Below are positions 13,701 through 38,376 of a DNA stretch of 38,376 nt, piece after piece (position 1 is the stretch's first letter; each line of letters opens with the position of its first letter). Location of the stretch: positions 1-38,376 of the IMG/VR virus record IMGVR_UViG_3300042343_001141; one strand, 5' to 3'. Made by a program: the position numbers and the translations under genes. This stretch comes from a virus (lineage: Duplodnaviria; Caudoviricetes). Under the pieces are notes generated by a model. The model had not been told where the DNA came from, made no database searches, and was given only the letters and a program-made list of their open reading frames with translations.

Positions 13701-16700
13701 CAAAGAAGGTTGAAGGGGTGTATGCTGAGCTTATTGTCAACGACCTCAAGGGTGAGGGAGTTTCATATCTAGGAAAGCCGGAGGTAACAGTCAGTGGAAT
13801 TGAACAATCAGCAATTGCCGGAGCAAACAGCGGAGACGCCAGGTTCTTCAGGGCCCTCGGAGATTCTGCAGAACTTCGTCCTGCCGGAATGGTGGCCGAC
13901 GGAACAGGAACTGCAGGCCTCTCTGGCGCCGACGACGCAGTTTTCCGAGGAACAGCAGGTGACCTTGATCGTCCCTTCTCCCCGTCCAACTTCTCGTCGG
14001 TAACAAAAAGTCTTTCTAAGGAGACACCGGGTACGCCGGAATACCAGGCGCTTCAAGATGAAGTTCTTGATGAACTATCCAGGGTTGTAACTCCAGCCGA
14101 AAAACAGCGTGTTCTTGGGGCTCTTGGGTCTGACATTTCTAGGCTTCAGAGAACCACTGAATCCGCGCGTATTCGCGCGGCAGAGGAGATGGCCGAGCAG
14201 CAAGCTTCGCGAGTCGGAGAATTTTCTAAAGGGGTCAAGCAAGCCTTCAACACGAGCGACGAAGAGGCAAATGCGCTTGCCGAGCTGTGGGACGCGGCAA
14301 TGCGATCCGAGGCTGCAGTCACCAATCGAACGGTTAAGGATGTATATGACAGCGTGCTCTACGGAGTCATGCGCGGGGGTGACGTAAACCCAGATGCTCT
14401 ATTTGCCAAAGAGTCTGGAGTCCTTGCTGATAAGTTTGCCCGGGCAAAGACGCCTGAAGGTCTTGAGCGCGCCATCCAGGCAGCGACAGAATTCAGGCCA
14501 ACCGACGACATGGTGGCTCTTGGGAAAAGGCTAAAGGACGAGAGGCTTTCGGGGTATCATCCGGTTGAGGTCATCCCTGGAAGCTCGCTCAACCCTGGGG
14601 CCACAGACATTGCACTCCCGGGAGGGATGGAGTTCCTTGCAAACCCTGCCCCCTACTCGTTGGCAGACGAGGTTGTCATTCGCTCGCAGGGGATTGTCCC
14701 GTCGATGCTGCCAGATCAGATGCGATTCCAGCTTTACAGCAAGCTTTGGGCCGGAAAAACCGTAGACTTCTCTGACCCAGTCGATCTTGTGAACCGGATC
14801 TCATTTGCTCTTACAAGCGCAAACAAGACAGCGTTGCCAATTAATGAAGCTCAGTACATGGTCATTAGGGCAAGGGACCTTGACGATGTTGGACAGATGG
14901 CCTCGTTCGTTCGCAAGGCGCGAGAGCGAGGTGTTGCGGACAAGGACATGGGTCGAGAGATTATGCGTCACTACCGCATGTATCTCCCAGAGTCCGAAAT
15001 CTCCAAGTACCCGACCGCGCCTGGGGCAGACCCCAAGTTCCGTCAGGAAAACCTTCGCAAACTTGTTGGGCCTGATGGGTACTTCCCAAACCCCGACATT
15101 CGTATCGGCTCAACTAACCAGACGCAGGCGTACCAGCGCATTGCCATGATCTCTGAGTTTGCTGATTCTAACCCAAGTTGGTTCACTATTCGCGCAGGAG
15201 AGACTGCAGAGAATCTTGCCGACCGACTTCTGATGATCAAGGGGGTTGGGGTAAAAGTCGGAAACTTTGCTGTCGAGCTTGGGCAGCCAACCACTTTGAA
15301 TCGCGGCACCATTGACTTGCAAATGTCTCTTGACCTGTTTAAGGCAGCAGAGCAAAAGGGCGACCTCGCCGCACTTGTCGAACGGCTTAATGCTGTCCCG
15401 GGAGGCAAGGCCTACGCCGACACCATGGTTAAGGCGCTCCGGGGCGAGGCAGAAACGATTAACGCACCATTCCGATCTCTTGGCGTTAGGGCGAAGATGT
15501 CTGACGATCTTGAGCGTGCATACTCGGAGATTCCGGAAAGCATCCGAACACCTCGCAAGGACATCCCCGTTTACGGAGAAAGTCCAGTGCAGGTCATGGA
15601 CGAGTACCTCGGCGTTCTCCAGGCTGCAGAGACAGCGGCTATTCCGGGACTTGCAAACGTTGGTCGTGGTGCATATCAATGGTTCCGATGGGACGCCTTC
15701 CGTGGCAAGGTAGAACCACATTCGTTGCTTTACAAGAACGCAAACAAGCTCCCACGAGCAGACTTTAATGACGTCCAGAATGGCCTTGATACCCTTCGCG
15801 CGGCAGGGTTCACAAGGCCGACGGATGCTGTGCAGGCGTTTAATCCAAACCTTCTTTCCAAGTACTTCAAGAAAGATGGGGAAAAGGTCATTGGATCGAC
15901 TGAGTTCCTCGAGAATGGCCGAGCACTTATCAAGGGGTTTGAGGGTTCGAGCTGGACTACTGCAACCCATGAGTTTGCCCACGTGTTCCGTGGCACCCTC
16001 CTTAAGGGTGAGGCTCTTGAGACTGCTTCCAAGTGGGCTGGGGCTAAGCTTGATGATTCTGGTCGGTACGTGTGGACGCGCGCGCAAGAGGAGAAGTTCG
16101 CCGACGCGTTTAACGTGTGGCTCAAGAAGGGTAAGGCACCGATCAAGAGCCTTGTACCAGTATTTGAAAGGTTCCGCCAGTGGCTCCTTGGGCTATATGA
16201 TCGCGTTAGTGGCAGCGTCTATAAATTCTCCGACCTCAAGAAAAGTAGGCTAAGTCCAGAAATCGAGTCCACGTTTGAAAGCCTGTTCCGTCGAGGGGAT
16301 GATGCAGTCATTAGCCCAAGAAACAAAGACCAGGAAAGCCTCCTTAACATCCTGTCCAGGATGGAAGACGACCTTAAGGGAAGTGCCGGGCAGAAGGACG
16401 AGGCCCTTGCAAACATTGCCAAGGATGCTGAGGCTGAAAGGCTTGTCCCAATGCCGCGATGGCATCCAAGCATGAAGGGCGTTGATCAAGACCTTCAACT
16501 ACAACTCGCACCTTTTGGCGCTGATATCCTTAAAAAGGGGAAATACACCCTGTCTGAAGCGCCAAGCCTTGCGATCCCTACAGCGCCTGGTCAAGGCTAT
16601 ATTGCCCAAGTTACTCAGACCAGGACCGGGCTATACGATTCTTTGCTTCTTGACAATCCAATCGTTTCTGGCCCACTTCGATTTATTGACTGGCTGACAA

Positions 16701-18253
16701 AGCCAGTTGGCGCAGGTAAGAACTCAAATACTGCACGGCAGTTTTTGTACCGCGAGCTCCTGTCAAAGGGAGCTACGGTGGCCGAAGTCAACGGATTCCT
16801 TGCCCTCCTCAAGGAGTCCGTTGACGAGGCACTATTTATGGGACTTCCGGTCTACAAAACAATTGGTGCCGTATGGCCTTCAAAAATTAATGCAAAAGCA
16901 AAGATCGCCTTTAAGGCAGATGTTGTCAATAAGGTTGGAGAGGAAAACTTCTGGCAACTTGTCGATCGAGCACAGTCTCGATACTACCGGTACCTCGATA
17001 CGCAGGCAGGTGTTCCGGGGGCAAAGGGATTTGTCACTAGAGCGCTCAAGGATGTATACGAATCGTATCAGCCAACGAGGTTTTCACAAGGTGCTCGTGC
17101 CGTAAGCCGATTCGGATATCCGTTCTTCCGCTTCATGCTTGACCCTCGATGGTGGGCAATGAATAAATTTGAGGCAGACGTGATTAATGGAAGCAAGTAC
17201 GGCTTGCAGGCTACTCGCGTGCGCGGTGCAAACACTGCTCTTGAAGACGCGGCATACGCAACACATCGCCAGCGAGGCCTTCCTGTGATGGGTGCAGAAA
17301 TTGATGGAATCCCAACCTCCGTTCTTGCTGGGCTCGATTCGGGCTTCTCAGACATGAGGCGTCTGACCGGTTATGGAACCAGGGCCCTTGAGGTTGCTCG
17401 TGAACGAAACGGAGCGCAACTCCTCCGAGAGTTCGGGGTAAACCCGGGCACCGGAGAGTTTGAGGCGGTTGAGCAGGCCATCAACTTCATTGGCCAGCGC
17501 GACCCGATCATTCGGCGTCTTGGAGACGTTACACCAGAGCAGATGTTTGAAAGGGCAGATGCAATCCGGAAGAGGCTGGTTTCTTTGCAAAAGCAGCAAC
17601 AGGGAAAGCCTTTGGCCCAGATCCTTGACGAAGAACTATACGTATGGGACAAGAAGGGGCATCGTGCAGGCATGGAGGGAATGGCTGATGACATCTTGGC
17701 TGAGAACAGGCGAGAGATGTCCCCACTTCTGCAGCGTCTATATGAGCTAAACGAGTCTTCGTACGCTTCACACATTAGCATCTTGCGCGGAAATACTAAC
17801 CGATCCAACCTCGAAAGAGTTCTTAATAGCTACTGGCTGTACTGGCCATTTAGCTATCAGATTAAGGCCACCCGATGGCTGTACAACGTCCTAACTGATG
17901 CTGCCGGGGAGGGCACGCTGAAGAATGTGGTTCGACTAGAGCGACTACGCCAGATCCACATGGACCAATTTAAAAACAACAGTGAGTACGCTGCGGTGTT
18001 CGAGAACAATCCGTCACTATGGCGTACCGCACAAATGTTGATCCCTATTACCCCGGGGGATATCGGGGTAACCCTGTCACGAGGTCCAAGGTATCTTGGT
18101 GGCGCTCTTGGGGTCTTCCCCGAGTACGCTGCCCAGGACCCGCTCACGGCAGGATTGAAGATGATGGCACTAGGACCGAACTATACGCTCGGACTATTGT
18201 CAGAAATAGGACGAGAGGGGACATTTGATGTGCTCCCCTTCGTCGGAGATTAG
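10736..18253 (+). CDS. Giant polyvalent internal virion protein (2505 aa) with a zincin metallopeptidase and putative SAM-lyase-like and HhH-glycosylase-like domains
   Basis: HEFAH (15968-15982) followed by EEKFADAF..WL..GKAP...VFERFRQWL, the pattern of polyvalent-protein peptidases. LLMIKGVGVKVGNF...TIDLQM is HhH-like. VSRFR / GVWQKSAEPS / QQDAVLLV is SAM-lyase-like. Confidence 0.7.
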   Translation: MGLLDKTRSSGSGASYGQSNKFNIPTPEPVDPNALNIDPSSNGLNIAPSSNGLNIGPIRQSRSQSTPWEDRGVPERATYNAFAPGSGLPGARSGYLSSQTNAYKTTGLDLSGAAPVAASGLETAFKAPGYAAERPLAAVNMITRGQGEKGAIDVATDIIRATPLLNELVGGFGNFLNGNAQTAFINSFTASTLLQYRKDIESGNLSMKTTVANPNGGFQTLGEFITSVKKKGFTDQDISDLFAGKKGTFDFGDREKGYIISDNGIVDMGLQIALDPTLILSAPIKLLWAGFKGLTGGFKAAQIFTSAAKTAPILNKAAESAHAVSNAWQTGSMAVGNNAYRLTLPGYRTAIKESITGTRIGTTAEVAGGVLKGAAKSYGRALTGRVTYAGYTPSLYQKYLISSTAFTAGQAGLGAATELITNGDEDNFFVGGLYRFINDLEEEKPLSDKYLAWNVVSAWKYPYKAVTSSAKGATVKRGQIELRRLYQIDKALITRLSDDMPNADKVKYSARVAYVKDRFGGDYAWNSFKAQILRYISYHGSSLHDVKGIAPSLGDAYRVTPGSMPAYAMHGEMLSRVIDDHLVRLIDDGQIPPGAIDEAFDAWVGNLRGVEEITGGVQAKVSGSGVIDNWVKFLPQAENLWAIGDNYGKVVLKNFDGVFAKEHWLGLRAELSAAAVNGKISASKLEEIIQENSAILSPESAQNANTWREYLVRGTDETFENLDSIIQKEIAEAPTLNELTGPWGAREAAAPVDDLVVPRGPVKADGSPDFDWSPDATEIFVSRFRDRIKARVGLEGDLSVKQAVAARADETVSVYEERIGKHLTDHGYTVTTAKPVVGVWQKSAEPSMHIVLPFRGPKVPVGPRDLAIVLKGPREAAVIALKGGTRVLDDQQDAVLLVLSKTAQEASGAAPNWHRMSFSIGRAMSFEESQKVVDAISDSYGAIGSTIDREAGTIQIMAKIADLSGPQARARSLVLSKAISELTGGVAPTKKVEGVYAELIVNDLKGEGVSYLGKPEVTVSGIEQSAIAGANSGDARFFRALGDSAELRPAGMVADGTGTAGLSGADDAVFRGTAGDLDRPFSPSNFSSVTKSLSKETPGTPEYQALQDEVLDELSRVVTPAEKQRVLGALGSDISRLQRTTESARIRAAEEMAEQQASRVGEFSKGVKQAFNTSDEEANALAELWDAAMRSEAAVTNRTVKDVYDSVLYGVMRGGDVNPDALFAKESGVLADKFARAKTPEGLERAIQAATEFRPTDDMVALGKRLKDERLSGYHPVEVIPGSSLNPGATDIALPGGMEFLANPAPYSLADEVVIRSQGIVPSMLPDQMRFQLYSKLWAGKTVDFSDPVDLVNRISFALTSANKTALPINEAQYMVIRARDLDDVGQMASFVRKARERGVADKDMGREIMRHYRMYLPESEISKYPTAPGADPKFRQENLRKLVGPDGYFPNPDIRIGSTNQTQAYQRIAMISEFADSNPSWFTIRAGETAENLADRLLMIKGVGVKVGNFAVELGQPTTLNRGTIDLQMSLDLFKAAEQKGDLAALVERLNAVPGGKAYADTMVKALRGEAETINAPFRSLGVRAKMSDDLERAYSEIPESIRTPRKDIPVYGESPVQVMDEYLGVLQAAETAAIPGLANVGRGAYQWFRWDAFRGKVEPHSLLYKNANKLPRADFNDVQNGLDTLRAAGFTRPTDAVQAFNPNLLSKYFKKDGEKVIGSTEFLENGRALIKGFEGSSWTTATHEFAHVFRGTLLKGEALETASKWAGAKLDDSGRYVWTRAQEEKFADAFNVWLKKGKAPIKSLVPVFERFRQWLLGLYDRVSGSVYKFSDLKKSRLSPEIESTFESLFRRGDDAVISPRNKDQESLLNILSRMEDDLKGSAGQKDEALANIAKDAEAERLVPMPRWHPSMKGVDQDLQLQLAPFGADILKKGKYTLSEAPSLAIPTAPGQGYIAQVTQTRTGLYDSLLLDNPIVSGPLRFIDWLTKPVGAGKNSNTARQFLYRELLSKGATVAEVNGFLALLKESVDEALFMGLPVYKTIGAVWPSKINAKAKIAFKADVVNKVGEENFWQLVDRAQSRYYRYLDTQAGVPGAKGFVTRALKDVYESYQPTRFSQGARAVSRFGYPFFRFMLDPRWWAMNKFEADVINGSKYGLQATRVRGANTALEDAAYATHRQRGLPVMGAEIDGIPTSVLAGLDSGFSDMRRLTGYGTRALEVARERNGAQLLREFGVNPGTGEFEAVEQAINFIGQRDPIIRRLGDVTPEQMFERADAIRKRLVSLQKQQQGKPLAQILDEELYVWDKKGHRAGMEGMADDILAENRREMSPLLQRLYELNESSYASHISILRGNTNRSNLERVLNSYWLYWPFSYQIKATRWLYNVLTDAAGEGTLKNVVRLERLRQIHMDQFKNNSEYAAVFENNPSLWRTAQMLIPITPGDIGVTLSRGPRYLGGALGVFPEYAAQDPLTAGLKMMALGPNYTLGLLSEIGREGTFDVLPFVGD
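10841..10894 (+). repeat. In-frame 27-bp tandem duplication (NIDPSSNGL / NIAPSSNGL)
   Basis: aacatcgacccgtcgtccaacggcctc followed by aacatcgccccgtcgtccaacggcctg, 2 mismatches. Confidence 0.9.
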
Positions 18254-28868: not shown

Positions 28869-30133
28869 TGGAGCAGTTGCCGTTTAACCAGGGGGCCGAG
28901 GCTGGCCTCCTGACCCGGCTACTCCTTGACCCGGCTCAGATACCGCTCGTCAGCGACAAGCTGACGGCAGAGGACTTCTATGTGCCAGAGTATCGCCGCG
29001 CATATAACGCGATGGTACGTTTATCGCAGGAGCGCAAGTCGGTAGACATTGCCTCCATGGGTCAGGATGGCGTCGGCCTCAACGCCCTCCTGACCCAGAT
29101 GACTCAGGGCCACCGAGCACCAGCCGAAGAGTACGCAGAGATCGTGCGGCGAGACGGATTCCGTCGTCGCCTCATCGTTGCGCTCGAGAAGCTGATCGAC
29201 AAGGCGCACCGGGAGGAGTCCAGGCAGGACCTTCTGACTGCCCTGTCACAGGCCACCACCTCGATCATGTCGAACGCGGAGGACGGATCACTTCTGTCCC
29301 CGCACAGTGCAGTCGAGATGTACAAGGACGTCCAGGTCGCAAGGATGTCCGGCATCAATGGGCTCTCCTACAATATCGGAGGGCTGGATAGGCTGCTTAC
29401 CCCTGCTCATGGCGGGGAGATGATCGTTGTGGCCGCTCGTCCATCCGTTGGCAAGAGCGCGTTGGCCGATAACGTGGCCGACAACTGGGCTGAACAAAGT
29501 CAGCATCCGATCCTCTTTGTCTCGATCGAGATGACCGTGCCCCAGCTTTTAGACCGTGCTGTCGCACGCCTTGGCCACCTCGATGCGTCGAAGGTTATTC
29601 GTGGGCAGCTCAATGGGGACGAGCAGAAGGTTGCTATCGAGGTTCTTGCAAAGAGAGAGACTATGAGGATCTGGTACCTCGACGACCCTCACGCAACCAC
29701 AGGTTCGGTGCGCGCTGCGGCTGCCAAACTACGCAGCTTGACTGGCGGCATCGGTGGCATCATCATCGACTACATGCAGATCTTGAAGGACGACGGCACG
29801 GACTCTGAGGTCCAGCGCGTCACAAGGATTAGCCGAAACGTCAAGGCCCTTGGCCGAGAGTTCGACTGCCCTGTGCTCGTGCTGTCCCAGCTCAACCGTG
29901 CGGTTGAACTTCGAGACGATCAGCACCCGAAACTGCACGACCTCCGGGAGTCCGGGGCCATCGAGCAGGACGCTGACATCGTCATCGGGTTGAAGAGGGA
30001 GCTCGGTACCAGGGAAATGGATATCGAGGTCCTCAAGAATCGGCAGGGTCCTGTCGGGTTGGTGAAGGTCGAGTTCGACTTTACCACCATGACATTCCCA
30101 CCGTACAATGCAGTTAAGGAGGCAGTTTCATGA
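28868..30133 (+). CDS. dnaB: DnaB-like replicative helicase (421 aa)
   Basis: AARPSVGKS (Walker A), SIEM, IIIDYMQ, LSQLNR, DLRESGAIEQDAD, KNRQG. Confidence 0.96.
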   Translation: MEQLPFNQGAEAGLLTRLLLDPAQIPLVSDKLTAEDFYVPEYRRAYNAMVRLSQERKSVDIASMGQDGVGLNALLTQMTQGHRAPAEEYAEIVRRDGFRRRLIVALEKLIDKAHREESRQDLLTALSQATTSIMSNAEDGSLLSPHSAVEMYKDVQVARMSGINGLSYNIGGLDRLLTPAHGGEMIVVAARPSVGKSALADNVADNWAEQSQHPILFVSIEMTVPQLLDRAVARLGHLDASKVIRGQLNGDEQKVAIEVLAKRETMRIWYLDDPHATTGSVRAAAAKLRSLTGGIGGIIIDYMQILKDDGTDSEVQRVTRISRNVKALGREFDCPVLVLSQLNRAVELRDDQHPKLHDLRESGAIEQDADIVIGLKRELGTREMDIEVLKNRQGPVGLVKVEFDFTTMTFPPYNAVKEAVS

Positions 30134-30600
30134 GAATCTACGTTGCGTTCGTTACATCGATCTGCGTGATCGCATCGTTCTTTAGCGGGTACGGCGTCGG
30201 CAAGTCCGAGGGCCTGATGACCCCGGTGTTCGTACAGGTCACACCATCCCCGAGCCCGGAGCCTGAGGTAAAGCCATCCAACGTGATCGTTGGGGTTGCA
30301 TCATGGTACGACGCCAAGCGTAGCGGACAGAGCACTTGGTACAGCAGGGCCGGGGTGAAGTACTACGCGGCAGCAGGGCCAGCCTTGCGGGCGGTAAAGA
30401 ACTTCCGATACGGAATGAACCCATACCCAATCAGGATCACCAACCTCAAGACCGGTCGCAGTGTGGTCGCCCTTGTGGTAGACTGGTGTGAGTGCCCGGC
30501 GAAGAACCGAATCGTGGATCTTGCGCCGGCTCTGTTCAAGGAGCTCGGGGTTGACCTTAGCCTCGGCCTCCAGAAGGTATCGATTGAGGTCATTGAGTAG
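30130..30600 (+). CDS. Membrane-anchored RlpA-like double-psi beta-barrel protein (156 aa)
   Basis: N-terminal TM helix, Pro linker, GVASWY, ITNLKTGRSV...VVD and RIVDLAPALFKELG...GLQKV. Confidence 0.8.
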   Translation: MRIYVAFVTSICVIASFFSGYGVGKSEGLMTPVFVQVTPSPSPEPEVKPSNVIVGVASWYDAKRSGQSTWYSRAGVKYYAAAGPALRAVKNFRYGMNPYPIRITNLKTGRSVVALVVDWCECPAKNRIVDLAPALFKELGVDLSLGLQKVSIEVIE

Positions 30601-31626: not shown

Positions 31627-32114
31627 TGGGGGTCAAGGTTGACCTCAGTTGGTACGAGCTTGAGCTTGCAGTCAACGTCGGAGCACGACGACAGACGGAG
31701 TCTCTCCGAAAGAATCTCCAGGATGCCCACGGATTCAATGGTGAAGATGGATGGACCAAGCATATTGAGGGGGCCTGCGGCGAGATGGTCGTGGCTAAAC
31801 TCCTCGGCATGTACTGGGATGGATCGGTCAACACCTTCAAGCGGCCGGACGTCGGCATGATCCAGGTAAGGACCAGGAGCAAGAGCACGTACGACCTGAT
31901 CGTCAGGCCGAACGACGAGGATGACAGCATCTTCGTGCTTGTGACTGGGGTGGCCCCATCCTTCGAGGTGGTCGGCTTCATCCGTGGTGGCGACGCGAAG
32001 CAGGAAGCATGGGCTGAATCATATGGCGACAGGCCTTCGGCATTCTTTGTCCCGCAAGAGTCGCTCATGCCAATCGAGAACCTCGTGCAGCAGCGAGAGC
32101 TTGTTGAGGCGTGA
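31626..32114 (+). CDS. Hypothetical protein, possible restriction-endonuclease-like fold (162 aa)
   Basis: GACGEMVVAK...PDV...IQVRT, a degenerate E...PD-(Q)xK-like motif. Confidence 0.6.
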   Translation: MGVKVDLSWYELELAVNVGARRQTESLRKNLQDAHGFNGEDGWTKHIEGACGEMVVAKLLGMYWDGSVNTFKRPDVGMIQVRTRSKSTYDLIVRPNDEDDSIFVLVTGVAPSFEVVGFIRGGDAKQEAWAESYGDRPSAFFVPQESLMPIENLVQQRELVEA

Positions 32115-32965
32115 GCTCGTTTTTGGAGTCGATCTGGGGGAGGTCCGAGATGTATGGAGAGCTGCGCCTGATGCGGCAGGACGGAGACCGCAAGGTCATC
32201 ACGCAGAGGTTCTACCCTTTGCGCGATGGCCTCGGGATTGTCCGTGCTGAAGCTGACTGCCTGACCTTCATGGTCGAGGGGTGGGATGTGTACTACGGCG
32301 TGGTTCCAAGGGTCCGGCAAAGGGGCACGGCAGCAGATGCTGCGCCCAGCACGAACGTGATCTGGGCAGACGTTGATGCCAAGAACTTCGCTTCGAAGAC
32401 TGAGGCAGCTACGAGCCTGAACATGTTTGAGATCCCGGCCTCTGCAATCGTTGACTCTGGGCATGGGTTCCATGCGTACTGGTTTCTGAGCGAGCCGGTC
32501 GAGATGGCACAGGCCCAGTCATCGATGAAGGTCATCGCACGAGCGGTCGGTGGCGACGCAGTGTCTGACGCTTCAAGGGTGCTCCGAGTACCGGGGACCA
32601 CGAACTACAAGGGCACGCCTGCTCCAGTCAGGCTGCTCAGGTTCGACGATGCTCGTAGGTACAGGCCTGGAGACTTCCCGGTCGATGAGGTCGTGGTCAA
32701 GAGGCCGAGGGCCGTGGTCACTGACGTCTCATCGTTCGTGAAGTTACCGGACTGGCTTCAGCAAATTGTCAAGGAGGGCGCGCCTAAAGGGGCACGCTCT
32801 GAGGCCGCCTTCAAGGCGTGCCTTTGGATGATCCGCTACGGATGGAGCGAGGAAGCTATCCGCGAGATCTTTGCGGCGTACCCGAATGGCATCGGGGAGA
32901 AGTACGCTGAGAGCGGGGACCGCTGGCTTGCGGTGACCCTGAGAGCAGCGAGAGAGGCGGCATAA
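32111..32965 (+). CDS. RepB-like (AEP superfamily) DNA primase (284 aa)
   Basis: WADVD (motif I), SGHGFHAYW (motif II), D.SRVLRVPGTTNYK (motif III), C-terminal helical domain RSEAAF. Confidence 0.88.
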   Translation: MSSFLESIWGRSEMYGELRLMRQDGDRKVITQRFYPLRDGLGIVRAEADCLTFMVEGWDVYYGVVPRVRQRGTAADAAPSTNVIWADVDAKNFASKTEAATSLNMFEIPASAIVDSGHGFHAYWFLSEPVEMAQAQSSMKVIARAVGGDAVSDASRVLRVPGTTNYKGTPAPVRLLRFDDARRYRPGDFPVDEVVVKRPRAVVTDVSSFVKLPDWLQQIVKEGAPKGARSEAAFKACLWMIRYGWSEEAIREIFAAYPNGIGEKYAESGDRWLAVTLRAAREAA

Positions 32966-33156
32966 TGGCAGCCGTGAAGACACAGAAGGGATCTAGCGGT
33001 CCGAAATTACAGACAAGGTGGAAGGGCGCGATCTGCTCGCTGTGTGCGAAGGAGATCGATGGGCTCAATCAGTCGTGGAGAGTGAAGTCGATATCGTATG
33101 GACCCCGCCGGGACATCATGGTGTGGCAGCACCGAGCATGCCAGGCTGCGAAATGA
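32965..33156 (+). CDS. Small zinc-finger protein (63 aa)
   Basis: CSLC...HRAC; coupled to both neighbours. Confidence 0.7.
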   Translation: MAAVKTQKGSSGPKLQTRWKGAICSLCAKEIDGLNQSWRVKSISYGPRRDIMVWQHRACQAAK

Positions 33157-33392
33157 TTAGCAAGCTTGGAGCTGAGTACATCCAATCGGCGGTCGAGGCC
33201 GGTAGAATCAGGCAACAGGCAGCACAGGAGTTCCTACGATTAGTCGCTGCTAAGACCGATCGTTGGGTCGCGCAAAAGATGGTCGAAGCTGAATACGCTG
33301 AGCGGATCGCGACTGCCGAGGCGGTGGCCGAGGTCAAGCTGGCATACCTGAAGAATGGAGGGGACAATGCCTATCAACCCAACGAAAACTAG
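33153..33392 (+). CDS. Hypothetical helical protein
   Basis: Start moved to the ATGA overlap at 33153 (MISKLGAEY...). Confidence 0.65.
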   Translation: MISKLGAEYIQSAVEAGRIRQQAAQEFLRLVAAKTDRWVAQKMVEAEYAERIATAEAVAEVKLAYLKNGGDNAYQPNEN

Positions 33393-33501
33393 TTCTCCGG
33401 TTTCCTCATGGGCCCGAAGAAACCATGACCTCGTCATCTTCTTCTGTGGTCAGGTCACCGCGTTGGTCCTGTTTGCAGTGGCGATGGCGTTGACAAAATG
33501 A
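33367..33501 (+). CDS. Small single-TM protein (44 aa, absent from the ORF track)
   Basis: GGAGGGG SD. MPINPTKTSSPVSSWARRNHDLVIFFCGQVTALVLFAVAMALTK; ATGA overlap with the next gene. Confidence 0.65.
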   Translation: MPINPTKTSSPVSSWARRNHDLVIFFCGQVTALVLFAVAMALTK

Positions 33502-33722
33502 AATGCCCGGCATGCGGAGGGCGAGAGTATCGACGACACCGGACTCCGGTGGAGGTCAGCAACGTGATCTACCGTCGGCACGAGTGCCTAAACTGGAGGT
33601 GCGGCACAATCTTCATCAGCATGCAGCAAGCACTGAGCGAGGAGATGGTCGAGGTCCTGGCCGAGGCCTTCGAGATTGCGACGACGCAGACCTCTTCTTC
33701 CGAGGAGACGCAGAGCGACTAG
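33498..33722 (+). CDS. Ogr/Delta- or NrdR-like zinc-ribbon protein, possible transcription regulator (74 aa)
   Basis: MKCPACG...YRRHECLNWRCGTIF. Confidence 0.7.
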   Translation: MKCPACGGREYRRHRTPVEVSNVIYRRHECLNWRCGTIFISMQQALSEEMVEVLAEAFEIATTQTSSSEETQSD

Positions 33723-33863
33723 GATATCTAGCTCCGGGAGGAAAGGGGCTATGGGCCTACTACAGGGACCACGGCATACACCCCCCGGAGTATCTGAGGA
33801 GGACGGTGAACCGCAAGGAGCTCACCATGGGAGACGCAGTCAACCTTCTTGAGGATGACAAAT

Positions 33864-33896
33864 AAAAAGGCCCCAGGTCATACGACCTGGGGCCTT
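33864..33896 (-). terminator. Terminator at the convergence of the two arms
   Basis: aaggccccaggtc-atac-gacctggggcctt, 13-bp stem, with the U-tract on the minus strand. May act in both directions. Confidence 0.85.
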
Positions 33897-33928
33897 CGTA
33901 CAGGGGAGAACGACCCTGTTGGTGAATA

Positions 33929-34177
33929 CTAGAACGGAAAGACCTCATCCGACAAGGCCCTGACCGGGCCTGTTTTCGCTTGCTTCAACCCCTGTGCCAT
34001 CGCAACAGCACACGCGACCCATCCCTCGGCCCACGCTGCCTTCTCCGGGTCATCACCATGGATGTCACCCTCGACTGAGCGGATCGTCTTGATGATCTCC
34101 TTGACGGTCTGCTCGTAGGCAATTGCGTTGGCCTCGTGCCTGCGTAGAGACTCCAGTTCAGACTTCAAAATCTTCAT
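33929..34177 (-). CDS. Hypothetical protein (MKILKSELE...)
   Basis: Start moved to ATG 34177, which follows a GGGGAGG SD. Confidence 0.7.
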   Translation of the reverse strand: MKILKSELESLRRHEANAIAYEQTVKEIIKTIRSVEGDIHGDDPEKAAWAEGWVACAVAMAQGLKQAKTGPVRALSDEVFPF

Positions 34178-34463
34178 CGTAGCCTCCCCGCTCGGCCGGG
34201 ATAAAGGGGTCGCCGCACGCAATGCGGAGGATCGAGCCATAGGCCCGGCCATCCTGCACGTCAATTGCAACGAGGCCCTCACATGCGAGACAGTCACCGA
34301 CTAGGTCGGTTTCCATCTCCGGGTTGCGCGTGAGGTACGGCACGAAGTGCCCCTTGTCACGGAGCTCCTTGCTCGTGGTGCTCCACAATGCGTAAAGCTC
34401 CGACCTCAGGTCGCAGGTCCTGTTTGGGTATATCGCCGGGGGTGAATCCCCCTGCGTCCTCAC
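34158..34463 (-). CDS. Hypothetical protein (101 aa)
   Basis: GTG start overlapping the upstream TAG; contains CxxC; fills the operon gap. Confidence 0.6.
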   Translation of the reverse strand: MRTQGDSPPAIYPNRTCDLRSELYALWSTTSKELRDKGHFVPYLTRNPEMETDLVGDCLACEGLVAIDVQDGRAYGSILRIACGDPFIPAERGGYDEDFEV

Positions 34464-34726
34464 TACTGGATCCTCGCGAAGCGGTCGATGGCCTTGAACG
34501 CGTCGCCATATGACGAGACGTAGCCAACGGCCGACTCACGAGTCTCCGGATTAACGACCTCATAACGCATTGGCTGCCCCATCCCGGTGTCCCGGATCTG
34601 GTAGTGGCAGCCGTGCGCTGAACCGGTGAATACCACCGGCTCAAAGTGGCAGTCGACTCCGCACGTGATGCAGATGCCGTCCTCCCAGTGTGGATTGTGC
34701 TCTATTCCCCTATCAATGCAGTTCAT
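34463..34726 (-). CDS. Hypothetical Cys/His-containing protein (87 aa)
   Basis: AAGGAGG SD, CITC motif, downstream of an internal promoter. Confidence 0.7.
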   Translation of the reverse strand: MNCIDRGIEHNPHWEDGICITCGVDCHFEPVVFTGSAHGCHYQIRDTGMGQPMRYEVVNPETRESAVGYVSSYGDAFKAIDRFARIQ

Positions 34727-34766
34727 GTTCTCCTCCTTACTGCAAACTACTTGCCATTGCCACTAA

Positions 34767-34795
34767 AAGATACACCGCGTAGGCCATAAGTGCAA
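34767..34795 (-). promoter_or_regulatory. Internal sigma70-type promoter
   Basis: Minus strand reads TTGCAC, 17-bp spacer, TATCTT in a 77-bp intergenic gap. Confidence 0.7.
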
Positions 34796-34803
34796 CCATG
34801 ATC

Positions 34804-35448
34804 TTACTCTGCATGAGGATCGACTCCTTCTACGCAGTTTGTGCAGATCAGTTCATCGCCCACCTTGACCGGAGGCACACAGTCCTCCGGGACATACGCA
34901 ATGCCGCACTTGCTGCAACCATACGGCTCAAGGCTGAGAAGAAGGTCTTCAAAGTCCTTGACCCGGTGTTGCGGCACGAAGATTGATACGCCCGAAGCAA
35001 ACAGATTGCTCGTGCGATCGACCGCGAAGGCCACGTCAAAGGGCAGAAGTTCTGCCTCCCACGCGTACTTGATCTTCTCGGCAATGCCGTCAATCTTGGA
35101 GCCCTCGCCCCACAGATTCACGCCTTCGGCCACCTCGTGCCACCCCTCAAGGGTGGTCACGAAGTACCCGCGCCATGCATCCGTGCGTGTGTAGGTCCGG
35201 TTGAACCGGGCCCACTGTTCACGAGGGAGCTCCTCGTAGTACTCGCCGTCAACAATCCAGTTGGAGCCGATAAGGTACCGGTCCTCCTCCTTGCCGGGCT
35301 TGTACACCGTGACCACAGAGGCAGACTCAATGTCCGACTCAAAGCAGCCCCAGCAGTATTCTGCATTGCGCAGTTCAGACCAACGGCCACCGTCGCCGGA
35401 GTCCGTGTCAAAGGTGCTCTCGCACCCGAAGCACTTGACTTCGCTCAT
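34804..35448 (-). CDS. Hypothetical protein with four CxxC motifs (214 aa)
   Basis: CFGC, CWGC, CSKC, CTNC; central Y.RTDAWRGY motif; ATGA coupling. Confidence 0.8.
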   Translation of the reverse strand: MSEVKCFGCESTFDTDSGDGGRWSELRNAEYCWGCFESDIESASVVTVYKPGKEEDRYLIGSNWIVDGEYYEELPREQWARFNRTYTRTDAWRGYFVTTLEGWHEVAEGVNLWGEGSKIDGIAEKIKYAWEAELLPFDVAFAVDRTSNLFASGVSIFVPQHRVKDFEDLLLSLEPYGCSKCGIAYVPEDCVPPVKVGDELICTNCVEGVDPHAE

Positions 35449-35729
35449 GATTGGCCACCCTTCTTACTCTTCTTCTTGGGGTTCTCAATCTCGTACACGG
35501 CAGCCTTCACGCTACGCGACACGAGTTCATCGTGGCACGTCTCGCATAGTCCGGTGTACCAGAGTCCATCAAGGTCTGGCATGCCGCACTCCTTGCACGG
35601 ATTGTCTTCTGCCTCCTCAACGACCTTCTTCTCCAACGCCTCAGCGATGGCCTTGTTGGTCTTGTCGCTTGCGCCGATCACCACGATCTCAAACCCCAGT
35701 GCCGGCACGTTCAGTTTCCTTGTGCTCAT
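35445..35729 (-). CDS. Hypothetical zinc-finger protein (94 aa)
   Basis: AAGGAGG SD; CKEC...CETC; basic C-terminus. Confidence 0.75.
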   Translation of the reverse strand: MSTRKLNVPALGFEIVVIGASDKTNKAIAEALEKKVVEEAEDNPCKECGMPDLDGLWYTGLCETCHDELVSRSVKAAVYEIENPKKKSKKGGQS

Positions 35730-35824
35730 CAGAGCACCTCCTTCCCTAGTCCACTTAGAATCAAGGCCGCGAAGATAATCAACGCTAGTAGCCTCATGCG
35801 CTTTGTGTCCTGTTCATACTCCAT
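35729..35824 (-). CDS. Small single-TM peptide (31 aa, absent from the ORF track)
   Basis: AGGGGAG SD directly after ribozyme HHR1. MEYEQDTKRMRLLALIIFAALILSGLGKEVL; TGATG coupling to the next gene. Confidence 0.65.
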   Translation of the reverse strand: MEYEQDTKRMRLLALIIFAALILSGLGKEVL

Positions 35825-35849
35825 GTGTGTTCTCCCCTGTTCTCAAGGT

Positions 35850-35908
35850 GTCTGCCTCATCAGCCCCGGGAGACTATCCCCGGAGGACGCCCCGAAGGGC
35901 GTTTCGGC
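35850..35908 (-). ncRNA. Type II hammerhead ribozyme HHR1
   Basis: Minus strand: gcc GAAA cgccc-uucg-gggc GUC / cuccggg-gauagucu-cccgggg CUGAUGA ggc agac. Loop GUCU pairs with tail AGAC. Predicted cut 35886/35885. Confidence 0.93.
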
Positions 35909-36135
35909 TACCAGACTTCGCTCTTCTTGGCCTGGCTCTTCTCAGCGTAGTGAGCACGCAGCCGCGCGTCAATCCTGATCTTGATCTCTTCGCCAATCAC
36001 CCACCCGGTAACGATCGCGCCGACCGTACCGAAGAGGACCAGAACCGAGAGCCCAAGGTGGCCATACACGGCGTACGCCACCGCTGCTGCCACTGTGGCG
36101 AGCAGGTATGTTGCGATAAACTCCTTCACGTTCAA
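35908..36135 (-). CDS. Two-TM membrane protein (75 aa)
   Basis: GGAGG SD, TTG start, two hydrophobic helices; its TAG runs into HHR1. Confidence 0.75.
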   Translation of the reverse strand: MNVKEFIATYLLATVAAAVAYAVYGHLGLSVLVLFGTVGAIVTGWVIGEEIKIRIDARLRAHYAEKSQAKKSEVW

Positions 36136-36404
36136 ACCTCCATCTCTTGCATGCGGGCCGCGTACTCCACGCTGCCCTTCGTGCCTTCCTTGACCTCGTA
36201 CCGGGACGGCACGTAATTGCCCCAGTAGTCGGTGTGGCCCTCCTCGCCAAGGATGCAGATCCCTGCCTCAATGGCGTACGCGGCCGCGCGTCCCACCGAT
36301 CCCTGCATGCGCCATGCCTGACCGGTGTCAATCAACTCCTGCAACGCTTCAACCGGATCAGCGGCCTCTTCGCGCAGGTACTTGAGCGTGTTCTCCGTGA
36401 ACAT
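36132..36404 (-). CDS. Conserved phage hypothetical protein (90 aa)
   Basis: AGGAG SD after HHR2; QELIDTGQAWRMQGSVGRAA is a motif seen in small early phage proteins. Confidence 0.8.
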   Translation of the reverse strand: MFTENTLKYLREEAADPVEALQELIDTGQAWRMQGSVGRAAAYAIEAGICILGEEGHTDYWGNYVPSRYEVKEGTKGSVEYAARMQEMEV

Positions 36405-36426
36405 GTTCTCTCCTGTTCTCGTGAGG

Positions 36427-36483
36427 GTCTGCCTCGTCAGTGCCGGGAGACTATCCCCGGCATACGCCTCGCGGCGTTTCGGC
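36427..36483 (-). ncRNA. Type II hammerhead ribozyme HHR2
   Basis: gcc GAAA cgcc-gcga-ggc GUA / ugccggg-gauagucu-cccggca CUGACGA ggc agac. Predicted cut 36463/36462. Confidence 0.93.
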
Positions 36484-36683
36484 TATTGGTACACCCCGGT
36501 CCCGTTGCACCCGCACGCTCCTTCGTCGCACATTGCGCCTTCAGAGAGCAGCATGGCGCAGCCATACTTTTCTGCGCGGTGCTCCTCGTGCTCCTCGCAA
36601 TACCACTTAATCTCACCGCTCTCGTTGTTGTCCGAGTAGTAAGCGGCCTCTTCGCCGCACCTACCGCACCTGTTATCCGTCAT
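36483..36683 (-). CDS. Small Cys-rich protein (66 aa)
   Basis: AAGGAGG SD; CGRC...CEEH...CDEGACGC; its TAG runs into HHR2. Confidence 0.72.
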   Translation of the reverse strand: MTDNRCGRCGEEAAYYSDNNESGEIKWYCEEHEEHRAEKYGCAMLLSEGAMCDEGACGCNGTGVYQ

Positions 36684-36701
36684 CCCTCTATCCTCCTTCA
36701 G

Positions 36702-36905
36702 CTATTCTCCGTCGTGGATTCTGAGCCTGATAGGATCCTGCGCGTGCTTCTTGCAAAGGGCCACCGTAAGATTCTCATCCTTCCTCTTGAACTCAAGCAC
36801 AAAGAGGCCCTTCTTGCCGACCATCTCGTCGCATCCGGCATCGTCTGCGTTCAGGCCTTGGCACCTCCACGCGCTCGCGCTTAGGTCAATCACGATATCT
36901 GCCAT
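36702..36905 (-). CDS. Hypothetical protein (MADIVIDL..., 67 aa)
   Basis: Start moved to ATG 36905 behind AGGAGG; C...C...CKKH possible Zn site. Confidence 0.72.
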   Translation of the reverse strand: MADIVIDLSASAWRCQGLNADDAGCDEMVGKKGLFVLEFKRKDENLTVALCKKHAQDPIRLRIHDGE

Positions 36906-36919
36906 GTTCTCCTCCTGTA

Positions 36920-36982
36920 TCGCCTGCCTCATCAGTCCCGGGTGGCGACTCCGGGAGACGGCCCTGTCACGGCCGTTTCGGC
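36920..36982 (-). ncRNA. Type II hammerhead ribozyme HHR3
   Basis: gcc GAAA cggcc-gugacag-ggcc GUC / ucccgg-agucgccac-ccggga CUGAUGA ggc a ggcga. Loop UCGCC pairs with tail GGCGA. Predicted cut 36957/36956. Confidence 0.93.
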
Positions 36983-37269
36983 TATCTCAATGCCTGCTCA
37001 GCCTGTGCGACCTTGATCTCAAGGCCCACCGGCCAATGGTAGCCACCCTCGTAGGCTTTTTCAAGACTCTGAATGAACTCCTGTACATAAGCGTCGTACG
37101 CCATGTCGTCGTTGGTGTGGCGCGATACGGTGAGCCCTGCCTGCAGCAGGTCAACCTCGTACGGCGCATCGCTCTCGCGAGAAGTCCGGTAGATCACGTC
37201 CACGCCATGCTCGTCGCGTAGGTTCTGGATCCGGTCCCATAGAGCCTGTCCCGGCCTGTATCTGCTCAC
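36982..37269 (-). CDS. Hypothetical protein (95 aa)
   Basis: Start moved to GTG 37269 behind AGGAGG; its TAG runs into HHR3. Confidence 0.72.
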   Translation of the reverse strand: MSRYRPGQALWDRIQNLRDEHGVDVIYRTSRESDAPYEVDLLQAGLTVSRHTNDDMAYDAYVQEFIQSLEKAYEGGYHWPVGLEIKVAQAEQALR

Positions 37270-37286
37270 TTTGCTACCTCCTGTAT

Positions 37287-37362
37287 TCACCTGCCTCATC
37301 AGGCCGGGTAGGTGAGTCCCCGGCGACCGGTGCTGAAGGGTTGCCTATGCACCGGTTTCGGC
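37287..37362 (-). ncRNA. Type II hammerhead ribozyme HHR4
   Basis: gcc GAAA ccggugc-(15 nt)-gcaccg GUC / gccggg-gacucaccua-cccggc CUGAUGA ggc agguga. Loop UCACCU pairs with tail AGGUGA. Predicted cut 37325/37324. Confidence 0.93.
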
Positions 37363-37610
37363 TAGATGAAGTCCTGCCTGCCGATCGTGACCTCAAAGAA
37401 GCACGAACTGCAGAACTCCACGGTTTCTTTGCGTCCGTTCGCACCCTCCACGATGCACTCGTGCTGGATGCCGCCCGGTCGCTGAACGTATCCCCGGCTC
37501 ATGCAGCGTTCGCAGTTTCCGGGCGAGGCCTTGCTATGGGCTGTGCTCGTGAAACTCCTGTCCTCAGGTACGCGGACGATGATCTCCGGGATCCTCTTGA
37601 CTGCCTTCAT
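37362..37610 (-). CDS. Hypothetical zinc-finger protein (82 aa)
   Basis: AGGAGG SD after HHR5; CERC...CSSC; its TAG runs into HHR4. Confidence 0.75.
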   Translation of the reverse strand: MKAVKRIPEIIVRVPEDRSFTSTAHSKASPGNCERCMSRGYVQRPGGIQHECIVEGANGRKETVEFCSSCFFEVTIGRQDFI

Positions 37611-37620
37611 GCGACCTCCT

Positions 37621-37696
37621 GCCCCATGTCCTCATCAGCCGGAGTGGGGGGCTCTCCACGCCGGGACCGGCACGCCCGAAGGCGCACCGGTTTCGG
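37621..37696 (-). ncRNA. Type II hammerhead ribozyme HHR5
   Basis: cc GAAA ccggugcgcc-uucg-ggcgugccg GUC / ccgg-c-gugg-agagcccc-ccac-u-ccgg CUGAUGA gg acau ggggc. Loop GCCCC pairs with tail GGGGC; stem II is only 2 bp. Predicted cut 37665/37664. Confidence 0.87.
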
Positions 37697-37853
37697 TTGG
37701 AGGTCTGTTCTGTATTCACCTGTTCAGGGACTCTGGCCGGCTCCCCGGTGGCCTCTTGGATCTGGGCTCTCCGGTCACCCCGGCTCCCTCGTCCTCACTG
37801 GCCCCGGTGCTCTCGCTCTGCTTGCGGCGATTCGCACCGGTTCGTCTGCGTCA

Positions 37854-37883
37854 AGAATGCACCCTGCGAATAGGCCACGTCAA
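37854..37883 (-). promoter_or_regulatory. Candidate sigma70 promoter of the ribozyme-containing early operon
   Basis: Minus strand reads TTGACG, 18-bp spacer, CATTCT. The spacer shares tggccta...ggtg with the promoter at 34767-34795. Confidence 0.55.
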
Positions 37884-37884
37884 G

Positions 37885-38376
37885 GTAAGAGATCTTAACA
37901 ATTGCGTAACAATCATGCTCGCTGTAACACTGGAAGGATAAGGTCTCTTAACAATCCAGTGGTCGTGCTCAGCCCGGTGTGAGCGTGGCTTGGTGTGAGG
38001 ATGGCTCAGGTTCATGGGCTGAATGTGAGGACCTCTCACGTGGCTGTGGCGGGCTGCCGGTGGGCGTGGGGGGTGTATCCTCAGGTCCCACGATCAGCAC
38101 TGGCACTGGCCACCACCATGGGCCAAAGGCCCCTGCACCACAGCAACCACCCCCACCCGGACAGAGGTTGCCCTGCGCTGCATGCTCCCCCCCTGTATCC
38201 CTCGTGGACTGAGCACGTGGTGGGGGGGGGTATGCCCATATCCAAGGTGCCCCCGGATGGGGCAGCGAGGTTATGTGCGCGCGTCGGGGGGGTTACACCC
38301 CCCCTCACACCCGGGCCCAATAGGTGTCCAAGGCATTGTTAAGCTGCGCTAACCATTTCTTTACCACACAGATTGG
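37885..38376. other. Non-coding control/terminal region with short direct repeats and G/C homopolymer tracts
   Basis: No credible ORF; TAACA repeats, ggtgtgag..tggct repeats, a G9 tract and a G7-TTACA-C7 inverted repeat. Confidence 0.55.

Follow-up and report, generated by a model that had tools for sequence, protein, structure and literature searches.

Five hammerhead ribozymes in one phage genome, carrying four different versions of the same tertiary contact, raise the question of whether selection acts on the pairing inside each ribozyme or on the difference between neighbors. The stretch analyzed here (the window) is IMG/VR record IMGVR_UViG_3300042343_001141, the whole 38,376-nt contig of a tailed phage. 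The hammerhead ribozymes (HHRs), HHR1 to HHR5, lie on its minus strand, within the first 2 kb of a block of small open reading frames (ORFs) that runs from approximately 37610 to 33929 and heads to a terminator-like hairpin (33897–33866). Their numbering opposes the direction of transcription, HHR5 being transcribed first and HHR1 last. Judging from the sequences, we hold with a probability of roughly 0.7 that the five motifs are type II hammerheads with the pseudoknot known for that class, and that they likely cut an early transcript of approximately 4 kb.

The ribozymes and their loop I/3′-tail pairing

All core elements of HHR5 (37621–37696, predicted cut 37665|37664) were parsed directly. 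It has homologues in 14 related contigs and reaches up to 37705 when the leader helix described later is included. HHR4 (37287–37362, predicted cut 37325|37324) has a long stem III. HHR3 (36920–36982, predicted cut 36957|36956), HHR2 (36427–36483, predicted cut 36463|36462 after GUA, core CUGACGA), and HHR1 (35850–35908, predicted cut 35886|35885 after GUC) follow in the transcript. An earlier, sequence-only reading of this locus had given the array a span of 35850–37656, which needs amendment at its end, since that coordinate cuts HHR5. The type II order (stem II strand, GAAA, stem III, UH, stem I, CUGANGA, stem II strand) is kept in all five parses, as are the G10.1–C11.1 and A15.1–U16.1 pairs. 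Stems I and III end in loops and stem II is open in every unit, stem II being 3 bp long in HHR1–HHR4 and 2 bp long in HHR5. The cleavage triplet is GUC in four units and GUA in one, and a ribosome-binding site lies 17–32 nt behind each core. Against the Rfam family RF02276, HHR1, HHR2, and HHR3 score 61.4, 49.1, and 57.6 bits, above the gathering score of 37, while HHR4 falls below it with 34.1 bits (E 3e-4). Stem III or stem I is longer in HHR4 and HHR5 than in the RF02276 model.

The complementary loop I/tail pairs described in the sequence-only reading are all present, entirely as Watson–Crick pairs. GUCU pairs with AGAC by 4 bp both in HHR1 (35874–35871 and 35853–35850) and in HHR2 (36451–36448 and 36430–36427). 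UCGCC pairs with GGCGA by 5 bp in HHR3 (36948–36944 and 36924–36920), UCACCU with AGGUGA by 6 bp in HHR4 (37315–37310 and 37292–37287), and GCCCC with GGGGC by 5 bp in HHR5 (37652–37648 and 37625–37621). Pairing as good as that observed arises by chance in 307, 307, 211, 36, and 115 of 3990 local 10-mers for HHR1 to HHR5, respectively. Each single pairing is weak (p 0.009–0.08), and the joint chance for the five is 8e-8, or about 1e-6 with HHR1 and HHR2 counted once. The pairings are convincing as a set, and none is so alone. When every loop is matched with every tail in a 5 × 5 matrix, the own tail is the best partner of each loop, HHR1 and HHR2 being interchangeable, and the other off-diagonal helices reach 2–3 bp.

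The positions that vary together should be noted. Scans of viral and metagenome contigs yielded 233 distinct type II 3′ halves, of which 80 distinct 46-nt sequences with a 22-nt stem I hairpin form a gap-free alignment. This set was picked by the length of stem I, not by the pseudoknot; the scan patterns fixed GGC in stem II, and one pattern also fixed the next two bases. Outside stem I, the top pairs are the three central pseudoknot pairs, with values of mutual information after average product correction (APC-MI) of 0.82, 0.78, and 0.59. With the structure given, 82.5% of the pseudoknot cells are paired. Double-sided changes at the three central pairs are found in 24, 36, and 30 of the 80 sequences, these cells being sequences, not events, and many of the rows being kin. 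The whole-structure covariation is 0.816 versus 0.05–0.15 in slid registers and is reached by none of 500 shuffles. The loop I/tail pairing is thus, as read from the alignment, under structural selection. In this respect the earlier claim of selection on structure stands; counting the four different pairs as four events in this genome was an overstatement, since the alleles recur.

A set of viral units gathered with a pattern that contains neither a stop codon nor a Shine–Dalgarno (SD) site comprises 142 units, from 134 of approximately 1500 matching viral stretches. Among the matches listed, loop I and the tail pair by at least 4 bp in 50 of the 142 units. Among those with a stem I hairpin of at least 21 nt, pairing of at least 4 bp is found in 47 of 64, compared with 21% (maximum 36%) with swapped tails. 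Stretches not parsing as hammerheads were dropped (e.g., L136–L138, L140, L141, L149, L150, L153, L154, and L171). The counts are lower bounds, since L140 is an apparent unit with a 2-bp stem that the parser missed. Another type II class, whose stem I hairpin is 17 nt long and whose stem II has 4 bp, accounts for 68 of the 142 units among the matches listed. The pseudoknot is found in 2 of these 68, and the class (L030/L031, L055, L103, and others) occurs in arrays that hold up to about nine near-identical copies.

In 2011, Perreault et al. defined type II hammerheads that have this very loop I/3′-tail pseudoknot and estimated that about 40% of hammerheads employ a pseudoknot (PMC3088659). Their class shares with the units in the window the open stem II of 2–3 bp, hairpin stems I and III, the consensus core, and a pseudoknot of at least 4 bp. 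The individual sequences alone differ, together with the tail of HHR5, which lies 4 nt further from stem II. Disruption of the pseudoknot slowed cleavage 20- to over 100-fold at 0.5 mM Mg2+ and compensation rescued it (PMC3088659); these mutants are the compensatory test that the sequence-only reading had proposed, done on another member. Its further statement, that such contacts allow fast cleavage at physiological Mg2+, agrees with the known type II tertiary contact, which fast cleavage at low Mg2+ requires (PMC3088659). The same paper describes clustered prophage hammerheads that flank variable genes, and three tandem prophage arrays in which all sites cleaved in vitro, one of them also in Escherichia coli. 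Its prophage clusters (C. scindens, A. caulinodans, and A. tumefaciens; PMC3088659, Fig. 3) have in common with the window several ribozymes per operon, inconstant intervening genes, and a proposed processing into gene-length mRNAs. In the window too, several same-strand ribozymes flank single genes or short blocks with variable gene content. Unlike those clusters, the array here consists of five ribozymes that are all of the same type and belongs to an uncultivated phage of 38 kb, among whose 48 scanned window proteins no integrase family turned up; stop-codon overlap, allele shuffling, and a boxA-like leader are measured here. Pseudoknot and clustering were thus already described in 2011, and the array is a further example of a known design. 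It adds an example, not a mechanism, because the pseudoknot was known and assayed at that time.

With a stem II of 2–3 bp, the pseudoknot would hold stems I and II parallel and thereby permit fast cleavage at cellular Mg2+, following Perreault et al. (PMC3088659). The cuts would turn the early transcript of approximately 4 kb into the leader and five messages of one or a few genes. The stem III hairpin, bearing a 2′,3′-cyclic phosphate, would form the end of each upstream message, each downstream message would start with a 5′-OH at the base of stem I, and genes swapped into the array would receive standard ends from each cut. In T7, the long early transcript is cut between genes by RNase III, and the products end in hairpins. 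The array differs from this in that its processing would be independent of a host enzyme and would leave 5′-OH and cyclic phosphate ends, not 5′-phosphate and 3′-OH. The sequence-only reading placed stem I at the 5′ start of each downstream product, and stem I is indeed flush at the cut in all five units. In a nested-fold model without pseudoknot energy, stem I is kept in two of the five products, those of HHR5 and HHR2. That reading also suggested that the structured 5′-OH end may resist decay dependent on a 5′-monophosphate, a suggestion on which the evidence is mixed. RNase E prefers 5′-monophosphates. The effect of a 5′-OH end would depend on the host, because the 5′-OH product of the glmS ribozyme is degraded by RNase J1 in Bacillus subtilis (PMC11780869). 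Pieces between two ribozymes would bear a 5′-OH and a 2′,3′-cyclic phosphate by established hammerhead chemistry, ends that would suit their re-ligation into circular or spliced RNAs. Such re-ligation is most improbable here: none was detected in tandem arrays by Perreault et al. (data not shown there; PMC3088659), and no RNA ligase family is present among the 48 window proteins scanned.

Several points weigh against cleavage of the transcript by five pseudoknotted hammerheads, in addition to the kinship among the aligned rows. HHR5 is not listed by RF02276 at E ≤ 1. The nested-fold model, in which pseudoknots cannot be scored, predicts the hammerhead fold poorly in the precursors of HHR3 and HHR5, and in the products of HHR3, HHR1, and HHR4 it favors other folds by 0.3, 2.9, and 6.5 kcal/mol, respectively, with loss of stem I. 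Four of the 18 consensus hammerheads assayed by Perreault et al. were inactive (PMC3088659), and the role of bacterial and phage hammerhead arrays was called unresolved in a 2019 review (PMC6765202). The candidate promoter ahead of the array (37854–37883) is not listed by the consensus scan. Finally, a ribosome terminating on the UAG codon that overlaps stem II in the internal units would probably unfold the core and could suppress cleavage in vivo.

Differences between the pseudoknots

The sequence-only reading had proposed that divergent pseudoknots limit cross-pairing between neighboring units, i.e., that neighbors are selected for different loop and tail sequences. The window itself appears to favor this, with four different pairs among five units and off-diagonal helices of 2–3 bp except between HHR1 and HHR2. 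We compared the clade of the window, which comprises 16 related arrays with 61 ribozymes (15 first units and 46 internal units). Cognate loop/tail pairs of at least 4 bp are present in 52 of the 61. Cross pairs of at least 4 bp within arrays amount to 26 of 192 (13.5%), where permutation gives a mean of 17.8%; this trend runs the way the proposal predicts and is not significant (p = 0.08). Adjacent units are cross-compatible in 19 of 90 cases, which is the same 21% as between arrays (724 of 3468). HHR1 and HHR2 are adjacent and yet identical, and in L237, L173, L233, and L172 a loop has a better partner in a foreign tail than in its own. Eleven unrelated arrays with 38 ribozymes, which were chosen by eye, have helices of at least 4 bp in 78 of 130 cross pairs, the null being 26%. 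One of them, L215:1288–4393 (+), carries eight hammerheads in 3.1 kb, nearly all of the CCC/GGG type with mutually compatible pseudoknots. On these counts, different pseudoknots are not required. Selection for orthogonal pseudoknots is therefore rejected, and we regard it as very unlikely on the p value in the clade, the adjacent units, the identity of HHR1 and HHR2, and the reuse of sequences elsewhere. Another conceivable cause of the divergence, the removal of long exact repeats within a genome, gave no clear signal, pairs sharing at least 25 nt numbering 1 of 96 within genomes versus 53 of 1734 between them.

Selection would instead act on the pairing inside each unit, not on the difference between units, because each tail is transcribed approximately 25 nt behind the loop it belongs to, whereas any other loop is hundreds of nucleotides away. 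The negative result is usable in itself, since arrays of identical pseudoknots exist in nature.

The origin of the differences is suggested by the relatives. The contig L155 is 95% identical to the window over 4491 nt (window 32001 to 36488), and its array has six ribozymes, partly different genes, and the HHR3 and HHR4 alleles in swapped order. Identity between the two stops just inside HHR4 and returns at the stop codon of HHR2. In the clade, 60 first genes fall into 29 families, and alleles and genes are freely combined: members of six gene families come after the AGGUG tail, and those of one family are found behind four different tails. Pseudoknot alleles recur, often letter for letter, in relatives at other positions and before other genes; in L234, an HHR3-type ribozyme stands before the gene that follows HHR2 in the window. 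The swapped alleles in L155 and the free combination of tails with genes indicate that the four pairs are old alleles of a shared pool, which would have been shuffled by recombination with small genes among related phages. HHR4 (37326–37356) has a long stem III that encloses a GGCAACC hairpin, and the same stem III is found in the first units of L237, L170, L173, and L176, indicating that alleles of stem III are shuffled separately from those of stem I.

The same observations could be taken to mean that the ribozymes are mainly DNA modules, the unit of stop codon, ribozyme, and ribosome site being a junction for gene exchange with cleavage as a secondary matter. The identity between the window and L155 that ends inside HHR4 and resumes at the HHR2 stop codon, the free combination in the clade, and the L234 arrangement would all be expected in that case. 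Recombination, however, needs only similar DNA, and the stems and the pseudoknot vary with compensation while the core is kept, which points to RNA function. The ribozymes are also not the sole junctions, because the surroundings of the gene at 36982–37269 changed at the start codon and not at a ribozyme. Within genomes, moreover, no clear purging of long exact repeats is seen. We consider this alternative unlikely; function of each unit as an RNA, with alleles drawn from a shared pool, is preferred.

Stop codons, the first unit, and its leader

In HHR4, the UAG that ends the upstream ORF (37362–37364) overlaps stem II, its G being the outer base of that stem. Equivalent UAG codons at 36984–36982, 36485–36483, and 35910–35908 place their G in stem II of HHR3, HHR2, and HHR1, respectively. 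A UAG whose G pairs in stem II is therefore present in 4 of 4 internal units here, and in 41 of 46 in the clade; one scan pattern included UAG, and the clade arrays were mostly gathered by first-unit patterns and a protein query. Among the matches listed of the pattern-matched phage type II units, an in-frame stop ends 2–7 nt before GAAA in 99 of 141, against a null of 53 of 2388, and an SD site with a start codon lies within 70 nt in 117 of 142. The range of stop positions and codons is as compatible with tight packing as with a signal. A literature search, with subscription literature largely outside it, found no paper on this stop-codon/SD layout of phage hammerheads.

One possibility is that ribosomes at the stem II UAG block folding, so that a unit cuts only when its upstream ORF is not translated and thereby shortens the life of the message. 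The UAG ends exactly 2 nt before GAAA in the 41 internal clade units mentioned above, the first unit, which has no upstream ORF, has no UAG, and a 5′-OH ribozyme product can be a decay substrate, as for glmS. On the other side, the stop lies 2 to 8 nt before GAAA across phages with all three codons used, as tight packing predicts, and A at that position is common in units with a long stem I anyway (45 of 64 among the matches listed). Such a translation-gated switch of decay therefore seems improbable.

The first unit is different in its surroundings. HHR5 has no upstream ORF, and the SD site of the first gene (AGGAGG, 37620–37615, within 37613–37620) lies directly behind its tail. The leader segment GACCUCC (37699–37705) is complementary to GGAGGUC (37619–37613), giving a predicted extension of stem II around the pseudoknot tail. 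The tail of HHR5 can thus be enclosed by a helix of leader and SD site; the main text of the 2011 paper (PMC3088659) makes no mention of ribosomes, SD sites, translation, or stop codons. Of the 15 first units in the clade, 14 contain CCUCC, which is absent from all 46 internal units. Eight of the 15 were found via a pattern that contains CCTCC; among the five first units found by protein query, CCUCC is present in four, the exception being L235. The predicted fraction of unpaired SD rises on cleavage from 0.06 to 0.61 in the 15 first units versus 0.46 to 0.48 in the 46 internal ones. Covariation of the anti-SD helix does not go beyond shuffles (94/500 and 43/500), L238 being misaligned in that alignment, and only one anti-SD pair varies (G–C in 5, A–U in 3, and G–U in 3 of 14). 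These predictions suggest that the leader GACCUCC may mask the ribosome-binding site of the first gene until cleavage frees the leader, a view that we hold tentatively and at slightly less than even odds.

Two first-position units depart from this arrangement. L238:1133–1246 (+) has no loop I pseudoknot and has an 8-bp leader:SD helix almost directly after stem II. L235:2298–2412 (+) has no anti-SD, and its pseudoknot strand is the self-complementary GGGCCC. Switches engineered from hammerhead and twister ribozymes (PMC5052635, which cites Wieland and Hartig 2008) likewise have an anti-SD on the 5′ fragment that pairs with an SD on the 3′ fragment, and cleavage would free the SD site. In contrast to those, the arrangement here is natural, has no aptamer, and the predicted helix extends the type II stem II beyond the pseudoknot strand.

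Upstream of HHR5, a candidate sigma-70-type promoter (TTGACG, 18 nt, CATTCT; 37854–37883, minus strand) fits a loose pattern, and a TTGAC box lies 165–208 nt ahead of the first GAAA in 12 of 15 relatives. A hairpin in the leader (37771–37783), whose loop is GGUGA and whose 4-bp stem varies, is boxB-like by position. It is followed in the untranslated leader by a boxA-like motif (37713–37729), the end of which lies 18 nt ahead of the HHR5 GAAA. All 15 of 15 clade leaders carry a motif that ends in CAGnUGAAUA. The boxA of ribosomal RNA (rRNA) operons, an antitermination signal bound by NusB–S10 (PMC13753749), is comparable in setting, being likewise a conserved motif that comes after a hairpin in a leader without translation, whereas the putative motif here precedes phage protein genes. 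It is only loosely like the E. coli and B. subtilis consensus (PMC13753749). With the clade consensus, 2 of 121 genome hits lie ahead of rRNA, one before a 23S and one before a 16S gene; the remaining 119 look like chance. The copy in the window departs from the searched pattern, and an rRNA-like motif in L254 was not confirmed by Rfam. boxA aids long untranslated arrays (PMC7862264), and a role of the leader motif in the style of rRNA operons is a lead suggested by sequence likeness.

A consensus fold of the whole 150-nt leader supports only one 4-bp hairpin, and besides hammerheads no Rfam family was found at E below 0.4 in 33000–38376. HHR5 would free the untranslated leader (about 150 nt) as an RNA of about 185 nt. 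A 13-mer around the HHR4 tail, CAGGUGAAUACAG (37287–37295), recurs in the boxA-like leader motif (37710–37722), and in relatives either AUA or AAA comes after the AGGUGA allele. This sharing may be a coincidence or may mark a second boxA-like site.

The gene block and the use of the related arrays

The genes between the ribozymes gave no PHROGs or Pfam family at the cut-off, with one weak DUF7417 match. An ORF of 82 aa (37362–37610) lies between HHR5 and HHR4, and an ORF with a GTG start behind AGGAGG (36982–37269) between HHR4 and HHR3; the homologue of the latter is at another place within the L155 array. HHR3 and HHR2 enclose two ORFs (36483–36905), of 67 aa (36905–36702) and 66 aa (36683–36483), and a homologue of either was not found in the array of L155. 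Between HHR2 and HHR1 (35908–36404) are an ORF of 90 aa, which matches DUF7417/phrog_3908 weakly, and a hydrophobic one of about 73 aa. A block of small ORFs of unknown function (33929–35824) stands behind HHR1. The intrinsic-terminator-like hairpin (33866–33897, minus strand, 14 pairs) was found by the consensus scan where the minus-strand block meets the plus-strand genes; that scan gave 4 sites versus 3.4 expected in shuffles, and this hairpin is the longest.

Elsewhere, the scan of the 48 window proteins identified terminase, portal, major head, tail, helicase, primase, and Cas4-like nuclease families on the plus strand. ORFs of 2505 aa and 953 aa (10736–18253, +), almost without family matches, are situated between the portal and major head genes. 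An ORF of 156 aa (30130–30600, +) has weak DPBB_1/Barwin matches below the cut-off, and a lysis or cell-wall protein is possible. Upstream of the candidate promoter are short repeats of the TTAACAAT/ATTGTTA type (37900–37990 and 38328–38343), including an inverted pair (37947–37962/38328–38343); this region is possibly an origin or an operator.

Taken as a whole, the clade might be read as a self-processing cassette system of two classes: a boxA leader with an SD-clamping first hammerhead, and interchangeable stop–ribozyme–SD modules drawn from a clade-wide pool of alleles. The rRNA-style boxA leader would let RNA polymerase run ahead, the first hammerhead would clamp the first SD in its extended stem II until the leader is cut off, and the modules would give any swapped-in small gene its own ends and translation start. 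We regard this composite as possible and, in its entirety, doubtful.

The 16 related arrays offer a resource on the role of bacterial and phage hammerheads, a matter raised in the 2019 review (PMC6765202), since they hold natural compensatory variants and allele swaps. Among the natural variants, the first unit of L235 has lost the anti-SD, and that of L238 has lost the pseudoknot and kept the anti-SD. If cleavage of the first unit does turn on translation, these phages would provide a naturally occurring example of a design that is known from synthetic biology.

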